Assembly: GCA_037379345.1 (NCBI GenBank)
Contig: CM074516.1
Coordinates: 45,793,626-45,857,625, forward strand
Direction: 5' to 3'
From: Perna viridis
Taxonomy: Eukaryota
DNA length: 64,000 nt
Made by a program: the position numbers and the translations under genes. How positions within the stretch are numbered: the stretch's first letter is position 1; each line of letters starts with the position of its first letter. The notes below the pieces were generated by a model. That model searched no databases, was not told where the DNA came from, and saw only the letters and a list, made by a program, of their open reading frames with translations. Shown one piece after another: positions 10,801-46,600 of the stretch.

Positions 10801-13800
10801 GAGACAATCAGTGTAAGTTAGAGAAGGTCTGTGTAAGTTAGAAAAGGTCGGTGTAAGTTAGAGATTATCAGTGTAAGTTAGAGAAGGTCTGTGTAAGTTA
10901 GAGAAGGTCGGTGTAAGTTAGAGACAGTCAGTGTAAGCTGGAGAAATTCTCTGTTCTGTGTAAGAAATGTTGGATTTCTCTTGACTATCTTTACAATGTA
11001 TCAGATAACATTGGTTCCTATTTTATTTATCAGATAACATTGGTTCCTATTTTATTTATCAGATTACATTGGTTCCTATTTTATTTATTAGATAACATTG
11101 GTTCCTATTTTATTTATCAGATAACATTGGTTCCTATTTTATTTATCAACTTATAAATGTCATTTGGCTTGTTCTTACTCAGAGAAGGAAACTGATTCCT
11201 ATAAAATGAGTTCCTTGACATGGTATTGGAAAAATATTTAGAAAAATAACTATGGAATTTCCAAAAAGCCTGAAATTACATGACAAATCAATAAGAGAGA
11301 AATTAAATCTTGAAGAAAATAGAATAATGTGGCTGTTATGTCACGGACACTGAGGGCCTTACCCTTTCCTCTGGAATTTCCAACTAAATTTTGGGTTATT
11401 TTTCTAAATTAATCATTGTTTTCAATGTGAGTGTTACTAAGTATGATAGCCACACTGTCACTACATCAATTGATTGTCTTCACAAGGATTCTTAGAAATC
11501 ATGGTTTTCTTAAAAATAAATAAGTCAACACCCCCTTGGTAAAGAGGATAGACTTTGTCTATTGTATTTTACAAGATAAACCATATTTGTACACTAAATA
11601 TTTTTGAAGTCTTCAATTTGGAAAATTTAACTTCTCATTTTGAAATGTTCAAACAGCAGAAATGTTTATCTGGAATGATTCCATCACATCATGTGAACCT
11701 TGTAAATGTTCTGAACGCTGATAATGAAACAGAGACAATTAATTCTCATATAGAGCTATATACCATTCATCAAAGTTAAAAGATTCCTTTAATGATAATA
11801 TGGATGTTGGCATGTGATTTGTTCTGCTATTTACGGGCTTTGAACTATTAAATTCCAGGTTTTAAGTTAACATAAGATATTAAAGGGGATAGAAACAATT
11901 GTTATATCTAGATTAAACAACTAATTCTATCAATTTTAAATGTTTATTATTATCATTAAAATCTTTAGTTTTTTCAAAATGTGATCTACATGTTGCGTTA
12001 GATTTAAATGTCATAAACAATTCAAGAGTTAGTATGACCTTGATATTTTGTTAGAGATGTACCTAATATCAACGATACCTTCATATGATATCATACATAC
12101 ATGTACTTAAGTTAATCAAGACATGCTTTAGACGTGGTCTATTTATCTATGATAACATGAATAATAACATTCTTTAGTTTATTTCTACTGTACAGACTCA
12201 ATTTTTCACAGCTAACATAGTAATGAGTTACAATCATTCCTTTACTTGAGATGGTAAAAGATTTTCAACATGCAAGCTTAAGGAAGCATGCTAAAATCTT
12301 AATATTACCACAGAGAGTGGAAAAATAATACATAAGAGAATATGTTTAAAATCTATAAAACTGGTAAAATGTAAAATGAAGTTTTGTTAAATTATTCATG
12401 TGCAAATTTTATCACCAAGTTAGAATGGGAGAGAAGAATATCCTGGTCAGTCTGTCTGTCTGTCTGTTAATGTAAATGTTTCAATGGATTGCAACAAAAT
12501 CGGAAAAGTTGGGCATATTGCCATATATGGATGTCTGTATGATGCATGATTATAATTGTTTTTCCCATAACCATGTATTTCATCTACTAGTTATATCATG
12601 CTTATTTGATGCTTTCTGCACTTCAGTTGTTCTGTATTGACCTTACCATTTTACCCTTGACCAGAAACAATGTGATATATTTCTCTTATTGTGTAGGCAG
12701 GTTGACAATTTATGTTGTATTACATTACAGCATGTATTGACTGGAAACCAAGCAACATTGTTTATCATTGTAGGAGTCTAAAGGTTATAAAATTTTCATG
12801 GACATGGAATGTGTTGAATTTCATAGTTTCAATAATTCATGATTTTAGCCTTTACTTGTATAACTATCATGTTAACCTAGACATCAAAGAATAACAAGAC
12901 AATATCATGATCTTTTTAATAATTGATTTTTCTGGTTATTACATGGTAAAGTAATACTGGCAGAGATTTATGAAGTGATTCAGAAGAAGTTGAACATTAA
13001 TTACTTAGTATATCTAATTGAATTGAATTACCTAGGCTCCAAGTTATAGTTCACATAAGACAGCAGAAATACAACTTTATTGAAAATTAGATTCATTAGG
13101 ATTCATTAATATAGGCCATCGTGTTTACAATCAAATAATAATGTATACAATTAAAACAGTAAAGTCAGCATATATTTAATATCTGACCAATATCTATCAT
13201 CTACAGATATTTATCCACATTCTGTTTTATTATGTTTTGTATGATTGATCCCTGATTGTGTTACTCACATGTTTATGTTACAGGAGAGACTCCAGATGGT
13301 GCTGTGTTACTCACATGTTTATGTTACAGGAGAGACTCCAGATGGCGCTGTGTTACTCACATGTTTATGTTACAGGAGAGACTCCAGATGGTGCTGTGTT
13401 ACTCACATGTTTATGTTACAGGAGAGACTCCAGATGGTGCTGTGTTACTCACATGTTTATGTTACAGGAGAGACACTCCAGATGGTGCTGTGTTACTCAC
13501 ATGTTTATATTACAGGAGAGACTCCAGATGGTGCTGTGTTACTCACATGTTTATGTTACAGGAGAGACACTCTAGATGGTGCTATGTTACTCACATGTGT
13601 ATGTTACAGGAGAGAGAAAATTCAGATGGTGCTGTGTTACTCACATGTTCATAAGTGTTTTTCTATGTTACAGGAGAGAAGGACACATCAGATGGTGCTG
13701 TGTTACACTCAGGTTCACATTACTTTCCATTTGAATTCACACTACCACCAAAGGCACCATCATCATTTAAAGGAAAACATGGAAGGTTAAGATATTATGC

Positions 13801-16800
13801 TAGAATGACTATCTGTACCCCTGGAGGACCCCATCCAACGAGAACCAGCAAGTTTGCTGTAATTGGTTGCTTAGATCTCAACAGTGAACCAGATGCTGCA
13901 GTGAGTAGAAATACTTGTGAAGTTGATTTTAGGCTCATTGTGCCGAAGGTTCATGCTTTCCTCAGATTCAGGCGTTTTTTTTCTGGTGAAACCTTTTCCA
14001 CGTTCAGACTTTACTTGAGTTTTTCTCTGGTGCAGCTTTTCTTCAAATTTTAGCTTGCTATTTGTTATATTATATTGGCTTTAGCTGTAGCATTTTTTGT
14101 AAGACCACATTTTTGCATATGAGTGTCTGTGTCCTCTGCCATATGCTTTCCTCTTTTAAAGGTTTACATCAGGGGTCCAAAAGTATGCTTTGATTAATTT
14201 CAACAAAAACAGAATTCTTGAGTTTTATTGATCTGCCAAATCTATTCACATATTGAGATTTTCTATTATATGTCCCATTTTTAAGTTTGTCCTAATTATG
14301 GTACCAAATTAACCTTTGTTGTATTTTATAAAAAAAAGACAATTCTTTAAGTTGTTCATTATGCCAAAGGTAACCATGTGTTTAGATTAGGATTTTGGGT
14401 CCTGTATTTAAGATGGTCATAATCATAGTCCAAATGGCCTTAAAATCAATTCAGTTCGATATCAGCAAATATGAATATTTGGGTTCTTTGATATGCTGAA
14501 TCTAATTCTCTAGATCAGAAAATTTTGAATTTCAAATCTTCTGTGATCACATTCATTTGTGTCAGAAAACAATACTTTTTCAAACATTTAATCACAACTG
14601 TTCAGGGTTAGATCTCTACAGTTGCATGAAGCTGCACACTGCTGAGCTTTTAAAATCTCTTTAGATTTAAGTTTTTGCAATAAATTAGCTCTGTTCAGGA
14701 AGTGCCAAGAGGGGCTGCAGCATTATGTCAAAACAATTCCACATGTTCTTCCTTTCTGAAATATTTTTTGTGGACAATTAAGATAGAGAGAATGTTTCTA
14801 CAGACATTTAATACTGTACTGTATGCACTTCAGTGGAGCATTACATTTCATAGAACTAGTTATTATTGGAAACTTTATATTTGATGAGTTGCACATTTTT
14901 GTATGAGTAGGTTTGTATAGAAATTGATTGATATGCCCTGCTCATCCTTGTCATGTAGGCTGACATGCCACTAGTTCACCCTGTATAATTCATTAGACTT
15001 AGTAAATAATATCATGGGTTACCATACTCAGTTGATATTGTTCAGAATCATGCCATATACTGAAAGCTTTCAACACCAGATGAACTATGTAGGTTTGGGA
15101 AGTGGAAGTGAATTAGGAAATTCCTACTTAAATCTCAAGGGTCAGGCTGTGCTGGTGTAATTTAACTGATAAGTTTTATATGACATGGAAAATGTGGTTA
15201 AAATCCTAGTACATGATGATATGATAGTTAGAATCACATTTTGTGGTTACATGATATTTTATTGTTTCTTGCCTTTAGTATAAATGGGTGTTAAATGATA
15301 GAGTTTTCTATTCCTCTGTCTTTCACTCTGAATTAAACTGTTCTCCTAGGTGGATTTTGATGTAATTTGTGCAGATGGAAGCCTGTAATATTGTTTTAAA
15401 GTTCATAAGATCTAAGGTCAGGGACTGTCTTCCTGAAAATATCACTTCATATCATTAATTTACCATGAAGGATAGATGGAAGCCTGACTAACAAGGAAGA
15501 ATATTATTTATTCTGGGTCATTAGATCAAAGGTCAAGATCAATCTTGCGAAATATTATATTTTTGTTGCAATGAATTTGTTGTTTTGCTAGTCAAAAGTA
15601 TTTGTTTATCCTGAACTTGTACAGACAAAAAATATACTCCACATACATTAAAACATGAAATGTCAGAGACTAATATTTAACTTTTTCTTAAGCAAGGGAT
15701 TGTGCAAACTTAATGAATAACAAAAAAGAAACTTGTTTTGGTATTCTTCAAGCTGTCAATGGCAGGAACTTCAAGTTTCATCCTGACAGTACTTTTTACA
15801 GTATAGCTATTGAATACTTGAAAATAATTGAACTTTTGAGCTTTGTATTTTTTTTGTACAAGATTTTCTTGCTTGTCCTGATTGACAACCAAATCAATAC
15901 AAAGAATGTTAACTGTCATCAGGGAAGACATTTTTTTACATTGTTAGCATTCCATCCTAATACATGTTCCACAATCTGTTACTTCATTGTAAATCTGTGT
16001 CAAGTATGTTAATTAATCTGTGTGGTCTCATTGAATTAAAAGTACAAATGGGGGAGTCATGTTCTGCTGCTAATTAATGAGTTACTCAGTTAAATGGAAA
16101 ATTAATATTAATATTTCTATTTGTATTTTATGTTTTGTTTGATGTGAAACATATTGGTCTGTTATTAAAATGCTCTTTTCATTTATTGCTTGCTATTAAA
16201 TGATCCATTGTGACAATTTGAACTTAGATTATTTCAAAAGATTGTAACTTGTCTTTCATGAGTTATCACTGATTTTTGAGCCAATTGTCTTTAACTTTGG
16301 ACTATGTATCAATGAAAAAAAACAGTTTAATACCTGTAGTTATTCATTATCTGTAGATTTATATAAGGAATTGTTCCCTGTAGGTTGTATACTAAAACAG
16401 TACAATATTGCATTTAAAGGTCATCGTACAAAAAAAGTCAGTATGACTAAACCAAATGTGATACATTCCCTACACAATTTAATTAAGATGCTGGTGCAAA
16501 AAGAACATGTTAAGAAAGGGTTTCTGAAATGTTTTCTATTCACAGGTCTCTTTTTATTTTCAGTACCCAGTAGAAAATGACACATTTGAGACTGTTGGTT
16601 CATTCTGTTGTATAGCAGGAACAGTCACAGCCTCTATCAGACTGGAGAAGAAAGGATTTGCTTTACGTGATGCCATACCTGTCTATGCTGAAATAAAAAA
16701 TCTCAGTACACGGCGGATATCTCATACACATGTGTCTTTAATACAGGTAAGAATCTCAATCCAAGGAACCCATGGCCTTTAATTATCACACTGAATTGGT

Positions 16801-37600: not shown

Positions 37601-40600
37601 CAATGACAAAGTCCTGCTTAACCTTTGGTTTATTAGTTCTGTAGTGACTAGACATTCAACAAAGCATTTTTGAATTGAATTTACATTTACCAAACTCTAC
37701 TTTCACTTTATCTTTTACCTTGATCTGTATTGACTTGACATTTCCCAAGCTCTACTTTTAAGTTATCTATCTGATCAGTGGCATCTTCAAGTTCTATATT
37801 TAATCTGTCCACTTCACCTGTCAATTTACTACATTGCTGAAAATAAACATAGTAAAGTAGCATATAACTGTCATTAAACTTTACAATTTGATGTGAGATA
37901 ATAATGTAACTATATCTTAAGAAGGGGTTGATTGAATATTACAGGCTAAAACAAATACAATAAGAAATGGCAGACCATATATTAATGTCTTTGTGAAGAC
38001 ATCATTGGGTAATTTAATGGAGACAACATTTGCCTGTGGTCAATATAGGGATCATCATCGGGATGGATATTTGAAGAATACGGAGTTGATGTAAGAGAAC
38101 AGTTCATGTCAATGTTATACCTGTGATTTTATCCTTACTTGATGTAAGAGAACAGTTCATATCAATGCTATACCTGTGATTTTATCCTGAGTTGATGTAA
38201 GAGAACAGTTCATATCAATGTTATACCTGTGATTTTATCTGTAAATCTGTATCTAATTCTTCTACAGTTTCTCTGAGAGTTTTAATTTCTTCATTTTCTG
38301 GAAAATGAATATAACTGTATGACCAAAAGGTTATGGAACATTTAATTTTGACAGTAAGTTTATTATTTCCTGGTGTAATTTGATATCTATCAATTTTGAT
38401 TTGATCTTCCTTGAGAATAGCCCATCAAAATCATGATCAAGTCAATGATGGAGTCTAAACTTCTCATTAATTTTAAGAATATTTTCTGCCACTTCATTAT
38501 TAGTGATGTTTGCTTTTACACAGGGGTAGTATTTGCAGCCATATCTTACAGAAAGTGTAATCAAGGGAACCAAGGTTATAGCGGTAATCAAAAGAATGTA
38601 ATCCAGGGACAAAGACCAGACATGGAAAACAGACATACACAGCAAAGAACATAAAGTAACTAAAATCATACATACAAAGTAACAAAAGCAAATGAGCCAC
38701 TCGGACTCCACTAAAAACTGGTAGTATGGACCAGGTGCACCAGTAGGGTAAGCGTCCTCTGCTTTTCTAGAAACACCCGCTGAGTTGCTCATAAAAAGTC
38801 AAGTCCGGGGTAGACAAACGAGGAAAGGAAAACTATGACCTGTTGAATAAATCAGTTTTCATGGTGCTGATGGATACACCATAACAATCCACGAGTTCAC
38901 AATGATGACCATAAAACTTCTGTAGTGATGACTTCAATCTTGTAGCAACATAACCCTGCTCCAGAAGCCTATTTGTTAGATTTCTAGCGTGATACAAAAA
39001 GTCGGCGTAGTTTGGGCAAGCTCTAGCATAACGTATGAGTTGTGATATGAACACTCCATACGCAGGAGCCGAAGGGATGTTGCCACAGATGAAAGGAAAG
39101 TTGACAATTCTGAATGAAAAGTCATCACGTTTGTCGTAAAGTTTGGTCAATAGTTTTCCTAGTTTTACCATCGATTTCTAAGTGAAGATCAAGATATCAG
39201 GCTGACTTCACAGTGTCTGTAGTATCCTTTATCTCAAGTTCTTTTGGGTAGATGCGATGTATCAAATTCCCGAAATTATTATTGTTTAAAGATAATACGT
39301 CATCTATATAGCGGAAACTGAGACTGAAGGATCAAGACAAAAGATATTTTTTCTTTCTGATTAGATCAGCTATAAAGTCAGCCTTGTAAGAGTGAAGGAA
39401 TAGGTCAGCAAGTAAAGGAGCACAATTTGTTCCCATTGGAATGCTGACCGTTTGTTGAAAAACATGTCCACCACACTGGACAAATATGTTGTCGATTAAA
39501 AATTCCAGCATTTTGTAAACATCTTCCTATGTTTATTTGGAAGATGATTTGGAATTATTTCTTACAAAGTATGAGGAATCTCTACCAAGAACTAGATATT
39601 TGTATCTAGGTGTACCATCTTTTTTGGAAAAACAACAATGTATAATGTTTTTAAGTCAGGATTTTAACTGAGTATGAGCAATAGAAGTATACAGTGTTGA
39701 AAAATCATAGGTTTTAATGCTATTATATTCAGATAATAGTCTTGAACTGATTGTCTCCAAAAGATCTTTCGAATTTTTCAGGATCCACATTGAATTAATA
39801 CCACTATGGGAGTAACAAGTGTTGTGGTAGGACTGCAGACCCTCTTTGACAGTTGTATAGAAGTTAAAAGTTTTGAAAGAGGTTTGGTGTTACATTTTGC
39901 AGATCCAGCTATGAAACGTTGTTTGTATGGATTCTTGTGGAGTTTAGGAATCCAGTACATAGACGGTAAATCACAATCATCGTCCTTGGTAGAGAGACCA
40001 AAAGAGGATAGCACAGATTTATGGTTTTCTACAATCTCTTCTTTGGAGAGAGTGGTAGCAGTATAGGTCTTATCACTGCTATTATTTTCTACGTCTACCT
40101 CTGATAATAAACATTGCATATAAAACATTTTGCTGACAAAAACAGTGTTGTTTCGGGCTTTGTCTGCTGGTACGACAACATATTTGTCATGTATAGTAGA
40201 CAATGTTTTTGCTACACCTAGATTTCTTGTTTTTAAATAATTGTCTTTCAATCTAAAATGTTATACATGAGTCAAAGAGCTAAATGCTGCAAAGTGTTAA
40301 TCTTGATGGTCTTTTATCCTATTTTTATTTGTTATTTTCTTTTATGTGTGTACTTTTTATTTATATATTATTGATAAACAATATGAAACTTTAATACTAA
40401 CTCTGAGTATTGGCTTCCATGTGTCGTTCTGTCCATGTTTCAGAATCTTGCTTCAGTTGTGCAACAACTTTATCTCTCTCTTCTGTCACCCTCTCTAGTT
40501 CTTTTCTCAGAACTGATGAACTGAAAATACAAGTAAAACAACTTATATTGTATTAAGTATAATATAAAATTATATGAACATAACCATTTTATGATGATTA

Positions 40601-43600
40601 ATAAGTTGTACAATAATATGTCAGATAAACATACAATAACATATTTTTCTACACAATAACATTTCCTTTGTTTCTAACCAGAGATATTCCTAGTTATAGT
40701 TATCATTTCAGAACCATTCAACTTATTGTGATGTTTGCATTGTTTAAAAATCTAGACAGATTGAAAACACACTCATCAAATAAATTACTACATAATGCCA
40801 GATAAATGACCATGATTATGGTAATTTTTAATACAAACAATAATCTCCAGTGTCACATCTAAATAGTTATCCAGCATACAGGTACCAAAAAGTCTGAACT
40901 CCACAAGTTATGTCAATTTATCAGAATTATCAATAAGAAAATGGATTCTCTCATTTAACCATTTACTCATCACCCTGATTTTATCCACCACATCTTTTTA
41001 TATGCTATTTCGTATTTATCACTTTTTCTTGTTATTTATACTTCAAACTTACTTCTTCACAGTATTTATCTTACTCACTTTTTTTGTCTGTTTGTTATTT
41101 ATACTTTGTTCTTCACAGTATTTATCTTACTCACTTTTTTTATCCGTTTGTTATTTATACTTTGTTCTTCACAGTATTTATCTTACTCACTTTTTTTGTC
41201 CGTTTGTTATTTATACTTTGTTCTTCACAGTATTTATCTTACTCACTTTTTTTGTCCGTTTGTTATTTATACTTTGTTCTTCACTGTATTTATCTTACTC
41301 ACTTTTTTTGTCCGTTTGTTATTTATACTTTGTTCTTCACTGTATTTATCTCTCTTACTTTTTTGTCTGTTTGTTATTTATACTTCAAACTTTGTTCTTC
41401 ACTGTACTTATCTCTCTTACTTTTTTGACTGTTTGTTATTTATTTTTCAAACTTACTTCCTCACTGTATTTATCTTTCTTACTTTCTTGTCTGTTTGTTA
41501 TTTGTTTCTCAACTGTAGATTAATATTGTAAATTATGCATGTTTATCTGTATACCAATGTTTCTACATAAGTTTAGCAGAATAAAGTATATATACATGTA
41601 CCCTCAATACTTACTCTTCTCCATCAGCCATGAGCTGTACAGGAGATACCACATTTTCTTCTCTTTGAACTTTAGACAAAGCTTTCTTTCTTGCTAACAA
41701 ACCTACAGGAAAATACAAAAATATTAATACCAGTAATTACTTAGTTTCATGTTGTCTGAATACATGTATTACTCTTCCATAATATGATTTTAATGTACAT
41801 ATGTTCAGTATAATACCAGTGTTCGTTATAAATAGAATAAGATAAAATTAAAAGGTGTATTAAAAACAATCACCTGTTCATGTGTGTAAATTTAAACACA
41901 ACTACTTCAATTATATTGTACAGTATTAGGTATTGTCAAGTCTTCCTATTGGAGAGAAAAATACTATAACTTGTGAGGTATCAATATAAACTACTCCACT
42001 CTTCACAGTCATGAAAATTGTAAAGAAACTGTCATAAACTTGTAAGTGTTAAAAACTACAGAAATTGGCAATAAACTAAAAATAGTGAAGTAAAAAGGTT
42101 TATTACATGAAATGTACATATATTTCTTTGAAGATAATGCATAGAAACAACCATAAGTTTGAATTTTTTTTCAAATTGCAACAAAACATAAAAATTTGCA
42201 ATCAAAATTCATGAAAAATACAAGTTGTGAAATTAGCTTGAGGTAATCAGAATATGACACCAAAAAGTCATCAAGTTAAATCTAATTACCTGTGGTCAAT
42301 CACCTGTGTCATAGGTAATTATTTGTTTGTTACAAATAAGTAATGTGATTAGTTTTACAAACATATCACAGAAATGGCAGAGATGGATATTATAGAAACT
42401 TTTATTAGTTTTTATCTGAAGGCCTGCTGTGAAAAATCAGACCCAAATTAATGCCTATTCAAATGCTCACAGTAGCTATTCAACACCTCAAGAATGACAA
42501 ACAATATTGGAATATATAAAGGTCAAATATATAAAGGTCAAAAACAAAGACAAAAAAGAATATCATCTGCTGTTCTATGTAAAGTGTAAATCTGATCAAT
42601 ATTGTGATAAACTGATTTTGTTATAAACACCACAATGGGAGACTACGTGTTTTCATTACACAAAAGATCTTTTGATCTGCTTGGCAAAGTGAGCAAAACC
42701 AATCTAAAGAATAGGCACAGAATCACCTCCACATCCCGTAAAGACTACATCTATGATGAAAACTGGACATATAAAAGGAAGACATCAACACCAATCAAGT
42801 GGTTTCAACAAGGAACACCAAAAAAGTGGCTTCAACAAAGCAAGGACCTAACAAATAACGGAGTCCATTTAGGAAGGGGACTTCAGATTGTAAGTTCTAA
42901 GATTCCCATCTTCAAACGAGAAAAAGCATACAGTATAGACAAGAAAAAGAATATATCTACAGGCAAATTGCCAAAACTTTGTGGGATTAAAAAAAAAATT
43001 GACAAAAAATTAGAGTGTGTTCCATCAGCTTCAACAGACTGTTCAATGATTCCAAAAACTGGTAATACATGTACAATGGACAAAACTCAGGAGAATATAG
43101 GCAAACCTATGGGCCAAGTATCTATTAATCCAATGCCAAACTTTGAGGTGAATTCAGCTGGAGTTGTTAAACTTACAATGCAAATGACAATATGGACCAA
43201 TCAGTTAAACAGACTGAAACGAAGAACAGAAAGACTAAGGGAAAAAGACAATCAACTAAAACAGAAGTATGAAGAATTGAAACAAAGGACTAAAAGAGTG
43301 TTATCTGAAGATGATGAACCACAAGAAAATCTAGGAGGTTCTCCTCCAAAACGTGCTAGAGTGGAAGATGTGACAAACAAACTGAAAAATTGTTCACTGA
43401 GACCAAAGAAGAACAAAACACCATCAAGAATTCCTCATCTTAGAAACAATGTGTTCTCTTATGCTAAAGCCAGGAGTTTGTTTGATAAACATGTGACAAA
43501 GGAGAAACTGTTTGGAAACCAAAACAAAAATGGGACATTAAATTCTACAAGTTCAGACATATTATTTACCTTTTTGAAGAATGGTAAGAAATGTACAATT

Positions 43601-46600
43601 TGTTGAATCTCTCAAACCAGGACAAAAACTTATCTACTGAACTTTAACCCTTTGAATAGTTCTGTTACCTCATTGTTATAATTATGGCCTTATAATAGTA
43701 TATATAAAAAAAATAAAAACAAAAACAAAAAAACATGAATATATTACCATTACACTGATTGATGACGACTTTAAGGTGCAAATGTAAACTGTTCACTTAT
43801 CAATTTATTCTTTTTTCAATTATAGAGGTCATTAAAAACAATCAGTCAGACATATTATAAGAATTTGATATGACATTGGTAACTTGGAACAAGAGTTGAT
43901 ACCATAAAAATATAGAAAACAGACACTAATTTATATTCTGATATTACCAGTAATTTCTTTACGAGTTCTTAATATATAACTGAACATAGTACACACTAAG
44001 GAGAGAAGACATTCAGGTTGTACCAATCAAATTAGAAAAATAAGACATGTAATGACAAAAACAGTTTTAAAACCTTGGTCTTAATATACAGAATATGATA
44101 ATAGAATGTACATGTTTATCAACAGTTAAAAAAAAAAAACAGTGTAATACCTTGTAACATTTCAATACGCCCGCTGGCAAAGCTAATTCTCTGCCCATAT
44201 GTCCTCACAGTACTGAACACAGTATTAAGTACACTGTACGATTCTTCTAGTCTACCACACACACTGTACAAAACAAAAGTTCTCAAAAGTAGCAGTCTTT
44301 ATGAAGATAGGAGGTGATACATACATGTCCAAAAACCACATTCAAATTTATTTCTTTATTTAGAAACATTTACAGACCAAATAACCAGTCTTAGTTTTTC
44401 ATTTGGTTGTTGCACTTATGAGATAAATATTCTAGATTGTACATAAAATTGGCACTTTGCAAGAGTTAACTTTCTTGATTTGGTTGATTTTAGTGGGAGA
44501 TGAATTTATGGTCTTCTAATAAATATAGATAGACCTACTTGCAGAAATGACTATGGTAAAGTAAAAATTTTGTGTATGTAGATTGAAAAAGTATAGTTTG
44601 TTTGGTGGTGTTTTCTACCATTGGTAGAGTCTTAATTTTATAGTTTTATAGGGATTGGTAATAATGGTACACAGCCATTTGCTAACAGTTAAAAAAAACC
44701 CTGAACTTTATTTTCATAAACAAGAGGCTCCCAGGAGCCTGAATCGCTCACCTGGTTGAATTTTGCCTTTCATGGGCAATAAATTATACAAGAAGTTGTC
44801 CAACGATTTTGACTCAAGAAAACTTTGATAGGACTTATCATAAGAATCATTTCAGCAATTGAAAGTTTAAATCTATCATAGTTTTCAAGACATTGGCTGA
44901 AAACTGTTAAAAAAAACTGTCATTTTCCCCTATCAAGGGCAATAACTCTTATAAGAAGGCGTCTGACAACTTTTATGCCTGAAGACTTTTGTAGTCCCAA
45001 AAATAAAGATCATTTCACTTCGTGAAAGAATTTGGCTAAATCTAACAGTTTTGGAGATATATGCGAAAAACTACTGTCTGACCCCTACATCCTATTATTG
45101 GTAACAGCGGCCATGTTTTTCGAAGAATCATAAAACCCCACCTCAGTTCTATGCAGCATACCCCAAGGAAAACTCATACCAAGTTTTGTTTCATTAGTAA
45201 AATAGTGTCAGAGGAGAAGATTTTTGAAAGAAATAACATTAAAAATAGCAAAAAAACATTGAAAAAGGGCAATAACTCCAATACGGCTTCATAGATTAAA
45301 ATGAAAATTTGACCGCAGATAGATCTCATCATGCTGAACACTTTTATCCATCTCAAAATTTAGCTAAACCTAATGGTTTTGGAGATACATGTATATGCAT
45401 AAAATTACTGTTGGCACCTTTGTTCTATTTTTAGTAACTGTGGCCATGCTTTTCAACTGATCAAAGTTCCCCACATCAGTTCTATGCACGATACCCCAAG
45501 GAACATTCATAACAAGTTTGGTTCCAATTGGTCAAGTAGTGTCAGAGGAGAAGATTTTTTGAAAGAAATAACATTAAAAATAGAAAAAAAAGGTTAAAAA
45601 AGGGCAATAACTCCAACATGGCTTAATAGATTAAAATGAAAATTTGACCACAGACAGATCTCCTCAAGCTTAACACTTCTAACATGTCAGAATTTGACTA
45701 AACCTAACCTATCTGACCCCTATGTTCTATTTTTAGTAATGGCAGCCATGTTTTTCAACGGATTGAAAATCCCCACATCAGTTCTATGCAGGATACCCCA
45801 TGAAGGAACATTCATACCAAGTTTGATTCCAATTGGTCAAGTAGTTTCAGAGGAGAAGAGTTTTTGAGGAAGACGGACGCCAAGTGATGGCAATAGCTCA
45901 TGTGGCCTTTGGCCAGGTGAGCTAAAAAAATCAGCATGATCAGACCAATAAGCAGGAGTATCAGTATAAATGTGTTTGTAAATAATCAGTCATAAAAGTC
46001 CTTATGATCTTCAATTTAGTACCAAATGTATACAAAGATTACTCATAACTAATGATTCTATATATATTTACCTTTTACAAAAGTGTTGCAAATGTTCTGC
46101 AGACTGATGATTGTCAGTAAGTCTGTCATCTAATAGAAGTGCCATTTGTTGGGCTTGTGTTACTTCATGCTGGAGTTTCTAAAAAAACAGTGAAACGAAA
46201 AGAATTATTTTGAATTTTTCAATACTATCTTAATTTTGCAAGAAGAAACCTATACAAATTATTCAATTCCACCAATTAACAATAAGAAAAGAATGGAATT
46301 TTTTAACATTATCACTTATCAAGCAGTTTGTAGAAGAGACAGACAGGAAAGATTACTTTAGCAAGGTTTTTTCACATATCATATTATTGGAGTATATACT
46401 GTCAGAGAAAGGTCACAAAAAAGATACCACCTGCTTCACTTATCTTCAAATATGTAACATCTTTAAGTTGGACTATTTCCTCTTGCAAGTTTTTCACACT
46501 ATTACTTCATGCACATCTGCATACATATAGAATACCAGATCTTCTTATATCAGAATAAAATTACCAGTTTAAGAGGAGTGCTGCTTACAAGACATACACA

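Follow-up and report, generated by a model that had tools for sequence, protein, structure and literature searches.

End-binding (EB) proteins bind, through their EB homology domain, SxIP motifs placed in chains that are basic and disordered, and repetition of the motif or oligomerisation of its carrier increases affinity (PMC4834103). In SLAIN2, a short coiled coil that dimerises occurs together with several SxIP-like motifs and cyclin-dependent kinase 1 (CDK1) sites (PMC3115796), tip tracking by GTSE1 is lost under CDK1 (PMC3517537), and Drosophila Kebab is not needed for either viability or fertility, which advises caution on importance (PMC3166307). Here, an intronless open reading frame (ORF) is described that lies in an intron of CCHCR1, within a window of 64,000 nucleotides from Perna viridis (assembly GCA_037379345.1, contig CM074516.1, positions 45,793,626 to 45,857,625). 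Its product, designated P0001, is by sequence comparison a member of a real, conserved and previously undescribed bivalve family. In the reading preferred here, to which we give a probability of roughly 0.4, P0001 would be a plus-end protein that binds EB and, by means of a farnesyl anchor, links growing microtubule ends to membrane.

P0001 shares with SLAIN2 a short, presumably two-stranded coiled coil, a basic disordered chain, several SxIP-like motifs, CDK1 consensus sites and a conserved C-terminal, putatively binding tail. However, the coiled coil is N-terminal in SLAIN2 and central in P0001, no sequence similarity was found, the SLAIN2 tail is a CAP-Gly-binding aromatic end whereas that of P0001 reads GKKCTxC, and the P0001 family is so far restricted to bivalves. 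With GTSE1 it shares a mostly disordered, basic chain with multiple conserved SKIP-like motifs and TP sites (PMC3517537); the motif-adjacent TP is conserved in GTSE1, whereas the TP preceding the SRIP motif of P0001 is kept in 2/4 homologues, and P0001, which lacks the N-terminal domain of GTSE1, contains a coiled coil and ends in a Cys tail. Kebab is likewise basic, with a coiled coil and EB1-binding SxIP motifs, but it has an Ndc80-like CH domain (PMC3166307), none being seen in P0001. P0001 likely functions like SLAIN, GTSE1 or Kebab but is a member of none, and neither family domains of nor homology to SLAIN or GTSE1 were detected in Pfam, PDB profile and ESM Atlas searches.

AMER2, itself an SxIP protein, binds membrane, and among the literature matches listed there was no natural protein joining SxIP motifs to a CaaX box. 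STIM1 joins EB-decorated plus ends to membrane (PMC4834103), as proposed for P0001, but its anchor is a transmembrane helix, whereas that of P0001 is a predicted prenyl group. Drosophila Kugelkern is a non-lamin protein with a short coiled coil, a nuclear localisation signal (NLS) and, at the C-terminus, a motif for farnesylation (PMC2947476); it differs in its length of 570 residues and in that SxIP is not mentioned in the available excerpts of that paper, and a nuclear location of P0001 is conjectural. None of 11 profile matches of the family was named Kugelkern, no direct pairwise comparison having been made. The original prediction, made from the letters of the window, pointed to lamins as an example of inner nuclear membrane targeting by NLS plus CaaX. 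P0001 is itself not a lamin: a single helix of 42 residues is predicted, with no Pfam match to a filament rod or lamin tail.

Membership in a conserved family

The ORF had been described as a K-rich frame of 323 codons on the + strand at 42635-43606, and this description held. Lys accounts for 15% of its residues (net charge +39), its GC content is 35% against 27% in the flanking intron, and the longest frame observed, of 331 codons, exceeds all those obtained when the intron was shuffled 1,000 times by dinucleotide (maximum 193, mean 86). The motifs attributed to it were also located, namely three SxIP motifs (residues 88, 137 and 264; P=5e-5), four full cyclin-dependent kinase (CDK) sites (residues 52, 61, 236 and 262; P=0.001, both values from 20,000 residue shuffles), the cluster PPKRAR and the end KKCTIC. 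In the predicted model the confidence score (predicted local distance difference test, pLDDT) is below 50 at 197 of the 323 residues, the chain being disordered except for a helix and the tail.

The ORF had been regarded as an orphan, which proved wrong. A first protein search (1,600 candidates) returned four proteins, one of them a 98% allele-level match and three 43-46% identical over 99% of the length, and a paralogue was found in the same genome. A profile search against 1.84 billion representatives gave 11 matches at E<=0.001, ten of which were family members; the remaining one (P0017, a repetitive protein of 3,641 residues) was discarded as spurious and left out of the tail counts. Nothing further appeared among the matches listed from a wider profile search (at least 7,987 candidates). 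The cluster of P0003 includes Mytilus galloprovincialis VDI77120.1, and P0013 corresponds to Saccostrea LOC134231096; the family would thus cover at least mussels and one oyster, a range resting on these two species, the only ones named. Three parts recur family-wide: the coiled coil of 42 residues, a segment KR...[ST]PxK and, at the C-terminus, GK[KR]CTxC. The subfamily of P0001 forms one side of a 99/99 branch, the other forks being unsettled and the tree containing long branches. Frames are intact across the homologues of 43-46% identity. Of the pattern matches from two metagenome scans, made with a view to synteny in relatives, 0/422 and 0/239 were confirmed.

No Pfam family exceeded its cut-off for P0001, and none was better than E 0.001 in 13/13 members; DUF6827 (E 0.001-0.13 in 4/13 members) was rejected as a generic coiled coil, its genome search having missed P0001. 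The PDB sequence profile gave a single match, at E 9.2, and the best ESM Atlas scores for P0001 (0.76-0.80) were at chance level, with no match for P0013. Foldseek, queried with a low-confidence model, returned 0 matches at E<=0.001 in the PDB or viral libraries; its best PDB row was a Hermes BED zinc-finger domain (21 columns, E 7.3, not significant). A search of open-access papers and a minority of their supplements for five identifiers of the named homologues found no paper, and nothing relevant appeared among the matches listed for CCHCR1, nested genes and bivalves. The identifiers were also absent from the excerpts of a study on mussel mitochondrial inheritance and from two of its supplementary files, in which the gene could figure under a locus tag (PMC12750733). 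The family has no Pfam model and belongs to a group in which the machinery of cell division has received little study.

At least two family loci were found in the genome among the 8 and 11 candidates scored. The paralogue, a single open frame of 265 residues (contig C2:61599385-61600179, + strand), appears to be antisense-nested as well, upstream of the GH31 catalytic exons (Pfam E 6e-10) of a maltase-glucoamylase-like gene, an arrangement based on DNA and exon matches; a signal-anchor exon upstream of the paralogue was tentatively assigned to the same GH31 gene. It carries an N-terminal MxKF, a PPGY, which is a WW-ligand pattern, and three full CDK sites, has no SxIP and ends in CTFC. A PPxY near the N-terminal MxKF likewise stands in place of SxIP in P0006, P0008-P0012 and P0015, and neither the paralogue group nor the oyster protein has an SxIP that passes the context rule for EB binding. 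Because the motifs appear only in the subfamily of P0001, the family would be older than its SxIP motifs, which likely arose after a duplication; paralogues with the same core and tail and either SxIP or PPxY would exemplify short motifs swapped after gene duplication. The paralogue's relatives P0008-P0011 have, between the N-terminal motif and the coiled coil, an extended repeat of low complexity (K-[NG]-G-T-[DG]-[NI]-S type) whose copy number varies.

SxIP motifs and probable EB binding

P0001, P0003, P0004 and P0005 have three to four SxIP motifs each, compared with about 0.05 in shuffles of the first three, and P0004 and P0005 carry two copies of the middle one. In the four subfamily homologues the SxIP-defining positions are identical at 8/9, against 62/256 for the background (Fisher p=1e-4) and 10/45 for other S, I and P residues (p=3e-4), a test that amounts to three lineages, P0004 and P0005 being 90% identical, and whose positions had been chosen because they form the motif. 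The context of SRIP has a net charge of +6/+7 in all four homologues, and the model, built on a shallow alignment, shows no secondary structure around the motifs (pLDDT near 40 over residues 81-90 and 131-140, and 52 over 261-270). SRIP passes the context rule in 4/4, and SKIP passes the form of it applied here, not the literal wording of the review. This is the only subfamily with SxIP motifs, and they are selectively conserved within it. The plus-end tracking protein (+TIP) idea of the original prediction gains support from motif positions kept across homologues of 43-46% identity, and P0001 would quite probably bind EB. A CDK site beside SxIP as a conserved switch found no such support, the Thr of TPSRIP being T/K/T/M in the homologues.

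Two EB (MAPRE) genes were found in the genome, about 0.9 Mb apart on contig C1. Their EB homology exons (L005:1471-1647 and L006:1471-1656) are 49% identical, the second lacking the ILY-type groove end. Complex prediction with two copies of an EB homology exon and residues 250-284 of P0001 gave a median of 0.27 against a mark of 0.34, in a setting in which no controls were folded and alignments were unused, and was taken as evidence neither for nor against binding.

Coiled coil, CDK sites and basic cluster

The predicted coiled coil stood up to closer analysis. The helix at residues 182-223 has a pLDDT of 84-95 in P0001 and 79-95 in the paralogue (predicted models), with Leu at four successive d positions (194, 201, 208 and 215) and polar residues at the a positions. 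The bZIP spacing is N-x7-R-x9-L; such a reading was rejected for this helix, whose spacing is off by one and which gave no Pfam bZIP match.

K220, R221 and K239 are invariant in 10/10 rows; KRAR is replaced by KSAR in P0005 and by KQAK, KQIK or KITK in other relatives. The NLS-like PPKRAR is present, and its conservation favours an [ST]PxK CDK site over a monopartite NLS. All four CDK sites that had been proposed exist, two of them being conserved: T52 is retained in 4/4, S236-P in 3/4, T262 in 2/4 and T61 in 1/4. Since the conserved CDK site adjoins the basic cluster and not an SxIP motif, a conserved switch would more likely act on nuclear import than on EB binding. The TPxKWxQQ tandem repeat is also real, but the importance given to it is not supported, as 3/29 positions are kept in residues 56-84 and the repeat is private to the species. 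The block at residues 38-55 forms a weak hairpin in the model (pLDDT 52-55) and contains no known motif besides the T52 site.

The C-terminal tail

The family tail follows the pattern [TS]-[FVI]-[LFMY]-[KR]-x-G-K-[KR]-C-T-x-C-stop, and its last 13 residues form a hairpin in two separate models (P0001 and the paralogue; pLDDT 71-78). Among 66 records, many of them near-copies, the ends were CTFC (47), CTLC (8), CTIC (4), CTNC (2) and HTVC (1), together with four fragments or out-of-frame ends. Cys stands fourth from the end in 13/14 aligned rows and 61/66 records, and position -1 varies (I, F, L, N, V). The most distant member, P0016, ends in REHTVC, with His for the first Cys and T-x-C retained, and is key to whether the tail is read as a CaaX box or as a PDZ ligand or zinc site.

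Data on prenylation boxes come from yeast only. CTIC and CTLC belong to the prenylation-positive training set and CTNC to the negative one; CTIC was positive by 4/4 predictors and CTFC by 3/4, PrePS being negative (PMC9231725). Ras heat-map scores are 15.7 for CTIC, 10.8 for CTLC, 6.5 for CTFC and 2.4 for CTNC, compared with 19.4 for CVIM and 4.9 for CASQ, and in the Ydj1 heat map all four CTxC variants (3.08-4.12) lie above the permissive cut-off of 3 (PMC10320760). The CTIC of P0001 is a good yeast farnesylation box, the ends of the family being mixed. The prenylation idea is favoured by the box and by the fixed position of its Cys and weakened by the CTNC and HTVC ends and the invariance of Thr(-2) and the terminal Cys, and farnesylation of C320 appears somewhat probable.

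Proposed mechanism

With Leu at the d positions, the helix at 182-223 would form a two-stranded coiled coil, and the resulting dimer would carry four to six SxIP motifs, a multiplicity that may strengthen EB binding at growing plus ends through avidity, in the manner of SLAIN2. Farnesyltransferase would modify C320, and the lipid, along with the basic-hydrophobic tail, would bind membrane, P0001 thereby connecting plus ends with that membrane. CDK phosphorylation at T52 and S236 may set the timing of this activity. At S236 it would weaken importin binding to the adjacent basic cluster, by which the membrane may be the nuclear envelope or derived from the endoplasmic reticulum (ER); if the NLS works, P0001 could be Kugelkern-like in interphase and contact EB only once the envelope opens. 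Were EB binding and prenylation both true, P0001 would be a natural one-chain, lipid-anchored link from growing microtubule ends to membrane. Its component parts are all of known kinds, so that surprise is moderate unless location or phenotype prove unusual.

A wider and quite unlikely scenario can be drawn, in which a bivalve intronless family with a coiled coil and a lipid tail landed in unrelated introns, and one copy gained three to four EB motifs and became a farnesyl-anchored plus-end tracker. Until M phase, a CDK-gated NLS would keep it in the nuclear envelope; it would then tether envelope or ER membranes to the tips of spindle microtubules in eggs or early embryos, as a new microtubule-membrane coupler of mussels.

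Several observations weigh against the preferred reading, in addition to the limits of the SxIP test given above. SMIP fails the context rule in P0001 and P0003, SKIP is lost in P0005, and only SRIP clearly passes the literal context wording in the excerpts of the review (PMC4834103). The blocks at residues 38-55 (13/18) and 271-290 (12/20) are unexplained, being about as conserved as the surroundings of the motifs. Prenylation alone does not call for the invariance of Thr(-2) and of the last Cys that is seen in 14/14 rows. Known CaaX proteins may retain all four residues over long times, so that this invariance weakens prenylation but does not exclude it. The oyster protein ends in CTNC and P0016 in HTVC, without Cys at -4, and CTFC, the commonest end of the family, is a weaker box (PrePS negative, Ras 6.5, Ydj1 enrichment 0.15 from few reads). 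The integrity of the frame is also qualified, as 2/15 records of cluster 4 (P0036 and P0040) and 1/15 of the records listed for cluster 7 end out of frame, errors and null alleles being indistinguishable. As for expression, the ORF is touched only by strandless contigs of 151-254 nucleotides at a depth of 2-3.3, from which a + strand transcript of P0001 cannot be read, and contigs of run X11 also lie in the non-coding intron, as pre-mRNA or DNA would give. In runs X12, X13 and X15, the unique ones among the intron pieces listed fall within the ORF, a weak hint of expression; stretches of the ORF that no contig covers were taken as evidence neither way.

Alternative explanations

The composition of the tail bears on an alternative that we consider rather unlikely, namely that P0001 is a soluble +TIP adaptor whose non-lipidated tail binds protein, as a class 1 PDZ ligand or as one half of a zinc site (CxxC/HxxC), the other half coming from a partner or from another copy of the protein. 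Cys can serve as the class 1 PDZ hydrophobe. The constancy of T(-2) and C(0) in 14/14 rows while -1 varies is in line with the X[T/S]X-hydrophobe pattern of class 1 (PMC2553845), and the His of P0016, the hairpin in two separate models and the poor canonical boxes CTNC and CTFC point the same way. It would nevertheless leave Cys(-4) in 13/14 rows to be accounted for, the exception being the longest branch (3.4), as well as the passage of all four CTxC variants over the permissive Ydj1 cut-off and the strong canonical box of P0001 itself, and no partner was identified. A location at the inner nuclear membrane has also been weighed and seems unlikely: there, the coiled coil, NLS and CaaX box would serve the lamina and nuclear shaping as in Kugelkern, the SxIP motifs being secondary or used only after envelope breakdown. 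The architecture reported for Kugelkern (PMC2947476), the strongly basic chain of P0001 and the make-up of the family-wide parts, which comprise the coiled coil, KR...[ST]PxK and the tail but no SxIP, are consistent with it. The classical bipartite NLS has a linker of 10-12 residues, which the 17 residues found here exceed; moreover, relatives keep the major basic cluster imperfectly (KSAR, KQAK, KQIK, KITK), the conservation of several SxIP motifs points to EB contact in the cytoplasm, and no sequence relative outside the family emerged from the profile and Pfam searches.

The preferred reading is further set against two accounts that dispense with EB altogether. In one, a real bivalve protein would keep S-x-I-P for another partner, unrelated to EB or microtubules, as the C-S-[MVI]-I-P repeat formed by the middle motif, with a neutral or acidic context in 2/4 homologues, and the paralogue group, with PPxY instead of a valid SxIP, might suggest; but SKIP and SRIP, lying in disordered stretches with a basic context, agree with the EB consensus (PMC4834103), and three motifs are unlikely by chance (P=5e-5), which makes this account improbable. 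In the other, the ORF would be a chance, silent, transposon-derived or viral frame, a view that we regard as extremely improbable and largely refuted. It could draw on the strandless, low-depth transcription evidence, on both genome members lacking introns and lying within introns, as expected of retroposed or mobile sequence, and on the Hermes row, though at E 7.3. However, frames are intact at 43-46% identity with block-wise conservation, the at least two family loci were the only ones among the 8 and 11 candidates scored, the intron DNA shows a single further 40-nucleotide match, no Pfam transposon domain is present, and viral relatives were absent from 36 viral-contig pattern matches (0 found), with 0 viral structure matches at E<=0.001. 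A transposon or viral origin had been named in the original prediction as a finding that would overturn it; protein searches recovered homologues, none of which identifies P0001 as a transposon or viral ORF, and no mobile-element domain, multiplied copies, terminal repeats or viral homologues were found, the copy counts being lower bounds.

Nesting in CCHCR1

The ORF is wholly intronic and antisense to CCHCR1, as the host intron is GT-AG, the exon join preserves the reading frame and the intron is skipped in contigs of 4/4 runs (from 24 listed runs, none recorded as RNA; three of the four are presumed RNA, and the kind of the fourth is not known). In the original prediction this intron separates coding exons 11 and 12; the exon scans made here yielded no complete gene model. 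The identity of the host agrees with the original prediction: Pfam HCR matches 2/7 scanned candidate exons on the minus strand (E 9e-6 and 6e-5, both below the curated cut-off), and an HCR search of the genome returned the same two places. CCHCR1 is located at the centrosome and P-bodies (PMC9590400). A functional link between guest and host, suggested from this location, was unsupported and set aside, the paralogue being nested in an unrelated host. The two unrelated hosts suggest that the location is incidental, and the host intron is thus likely incidental to P0001; retroposition is the likely route by which the intronic, intronless copies originated. The coordinates of the features are collected in Table 1.

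Table 1. Features of P0001 and of its host intron, with positions in the window
Feature	Position	Strand	Remarks
Intronless ORF P0001	42635..43606	+	323 residues; start ATG context CCACAATGG; homologues exist
Conserved block, residues 38-55 (YDENWTYK...STPIK), with CDK site T52	42746..42799	+	13/18 positions identical, 4 homologues
TPxKWxQQ tandem repeat	42787..42838	+	duplication of 27-nucleotide period; second copy species-specific
SxIP 1 (SKIP, residues 88-91)	42896..42907	+	present in P0003 and P0004; lost in P0005
SxIP 2 (SMIP, residues 137-140)	43043..43054	+	in all four homologues; acidic context in P0001 and P0003
Coiled-coil helix, residues 182-223, family core	43178..43303	+	predicted in models; 28/44 positions identical; invariant columns
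K220-R221, acidic linker, S236-P-P-K-R-A-R	43292..43360	+	candidate CDK-gated long-linker bipartite NLS (putative function)
SxIP 3 (SRIP, residues 264-267)	43424..43435	+	in all four homologues; basic context
Family tail, residues 310-323, ending CTIC-stop	43562..43606	+	CaaX candidate C320; predicted beta-hairpin round NG
AATAAA, candidate polyadenylation signal	43712..43717	+	105 nucleotides past stop, inside A-rich run
CCHCR1 exon downstream of host intron	41615..41702	-	contig joint and exon scan
CCHCR1 host intron	41703..44150	-	2,448 nucleotides, GT-AG; exon joint in contigs of 4/4 runs
CCHCR1 exon upstream of host intron	44151..44265	-	contig joint; gene identity from neighbouring exons

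Other observations in the window

Other CCHCR1 introns contain repetitive sequences. Broken frames resembling a non-LTR (long terminal repeat) retrotransposon, with a weak RNase H match (E 1.6e-4), occupy 55970-57211 on the + strand, and fragments which we take to resemble a reverse-transcriptase retroelement lie at 38442-40260 on the - strand, where one frame was scanned and gave no Pfam match. The intronic tandem arrays at 40867-41531 and 53830-55641 contain long open frames that are repeat artefacts, and a high-copy repeat with contig depth up to ~3,900 was found in the next CCHCR1 intron (44289-44600). Elsewhere in the window, an arrestin-domain exon (Pfam Arrestin_N, E 1.8e-17) is encoded at 13245-14053 on the + strand, with a tandem repeat ahead of it.

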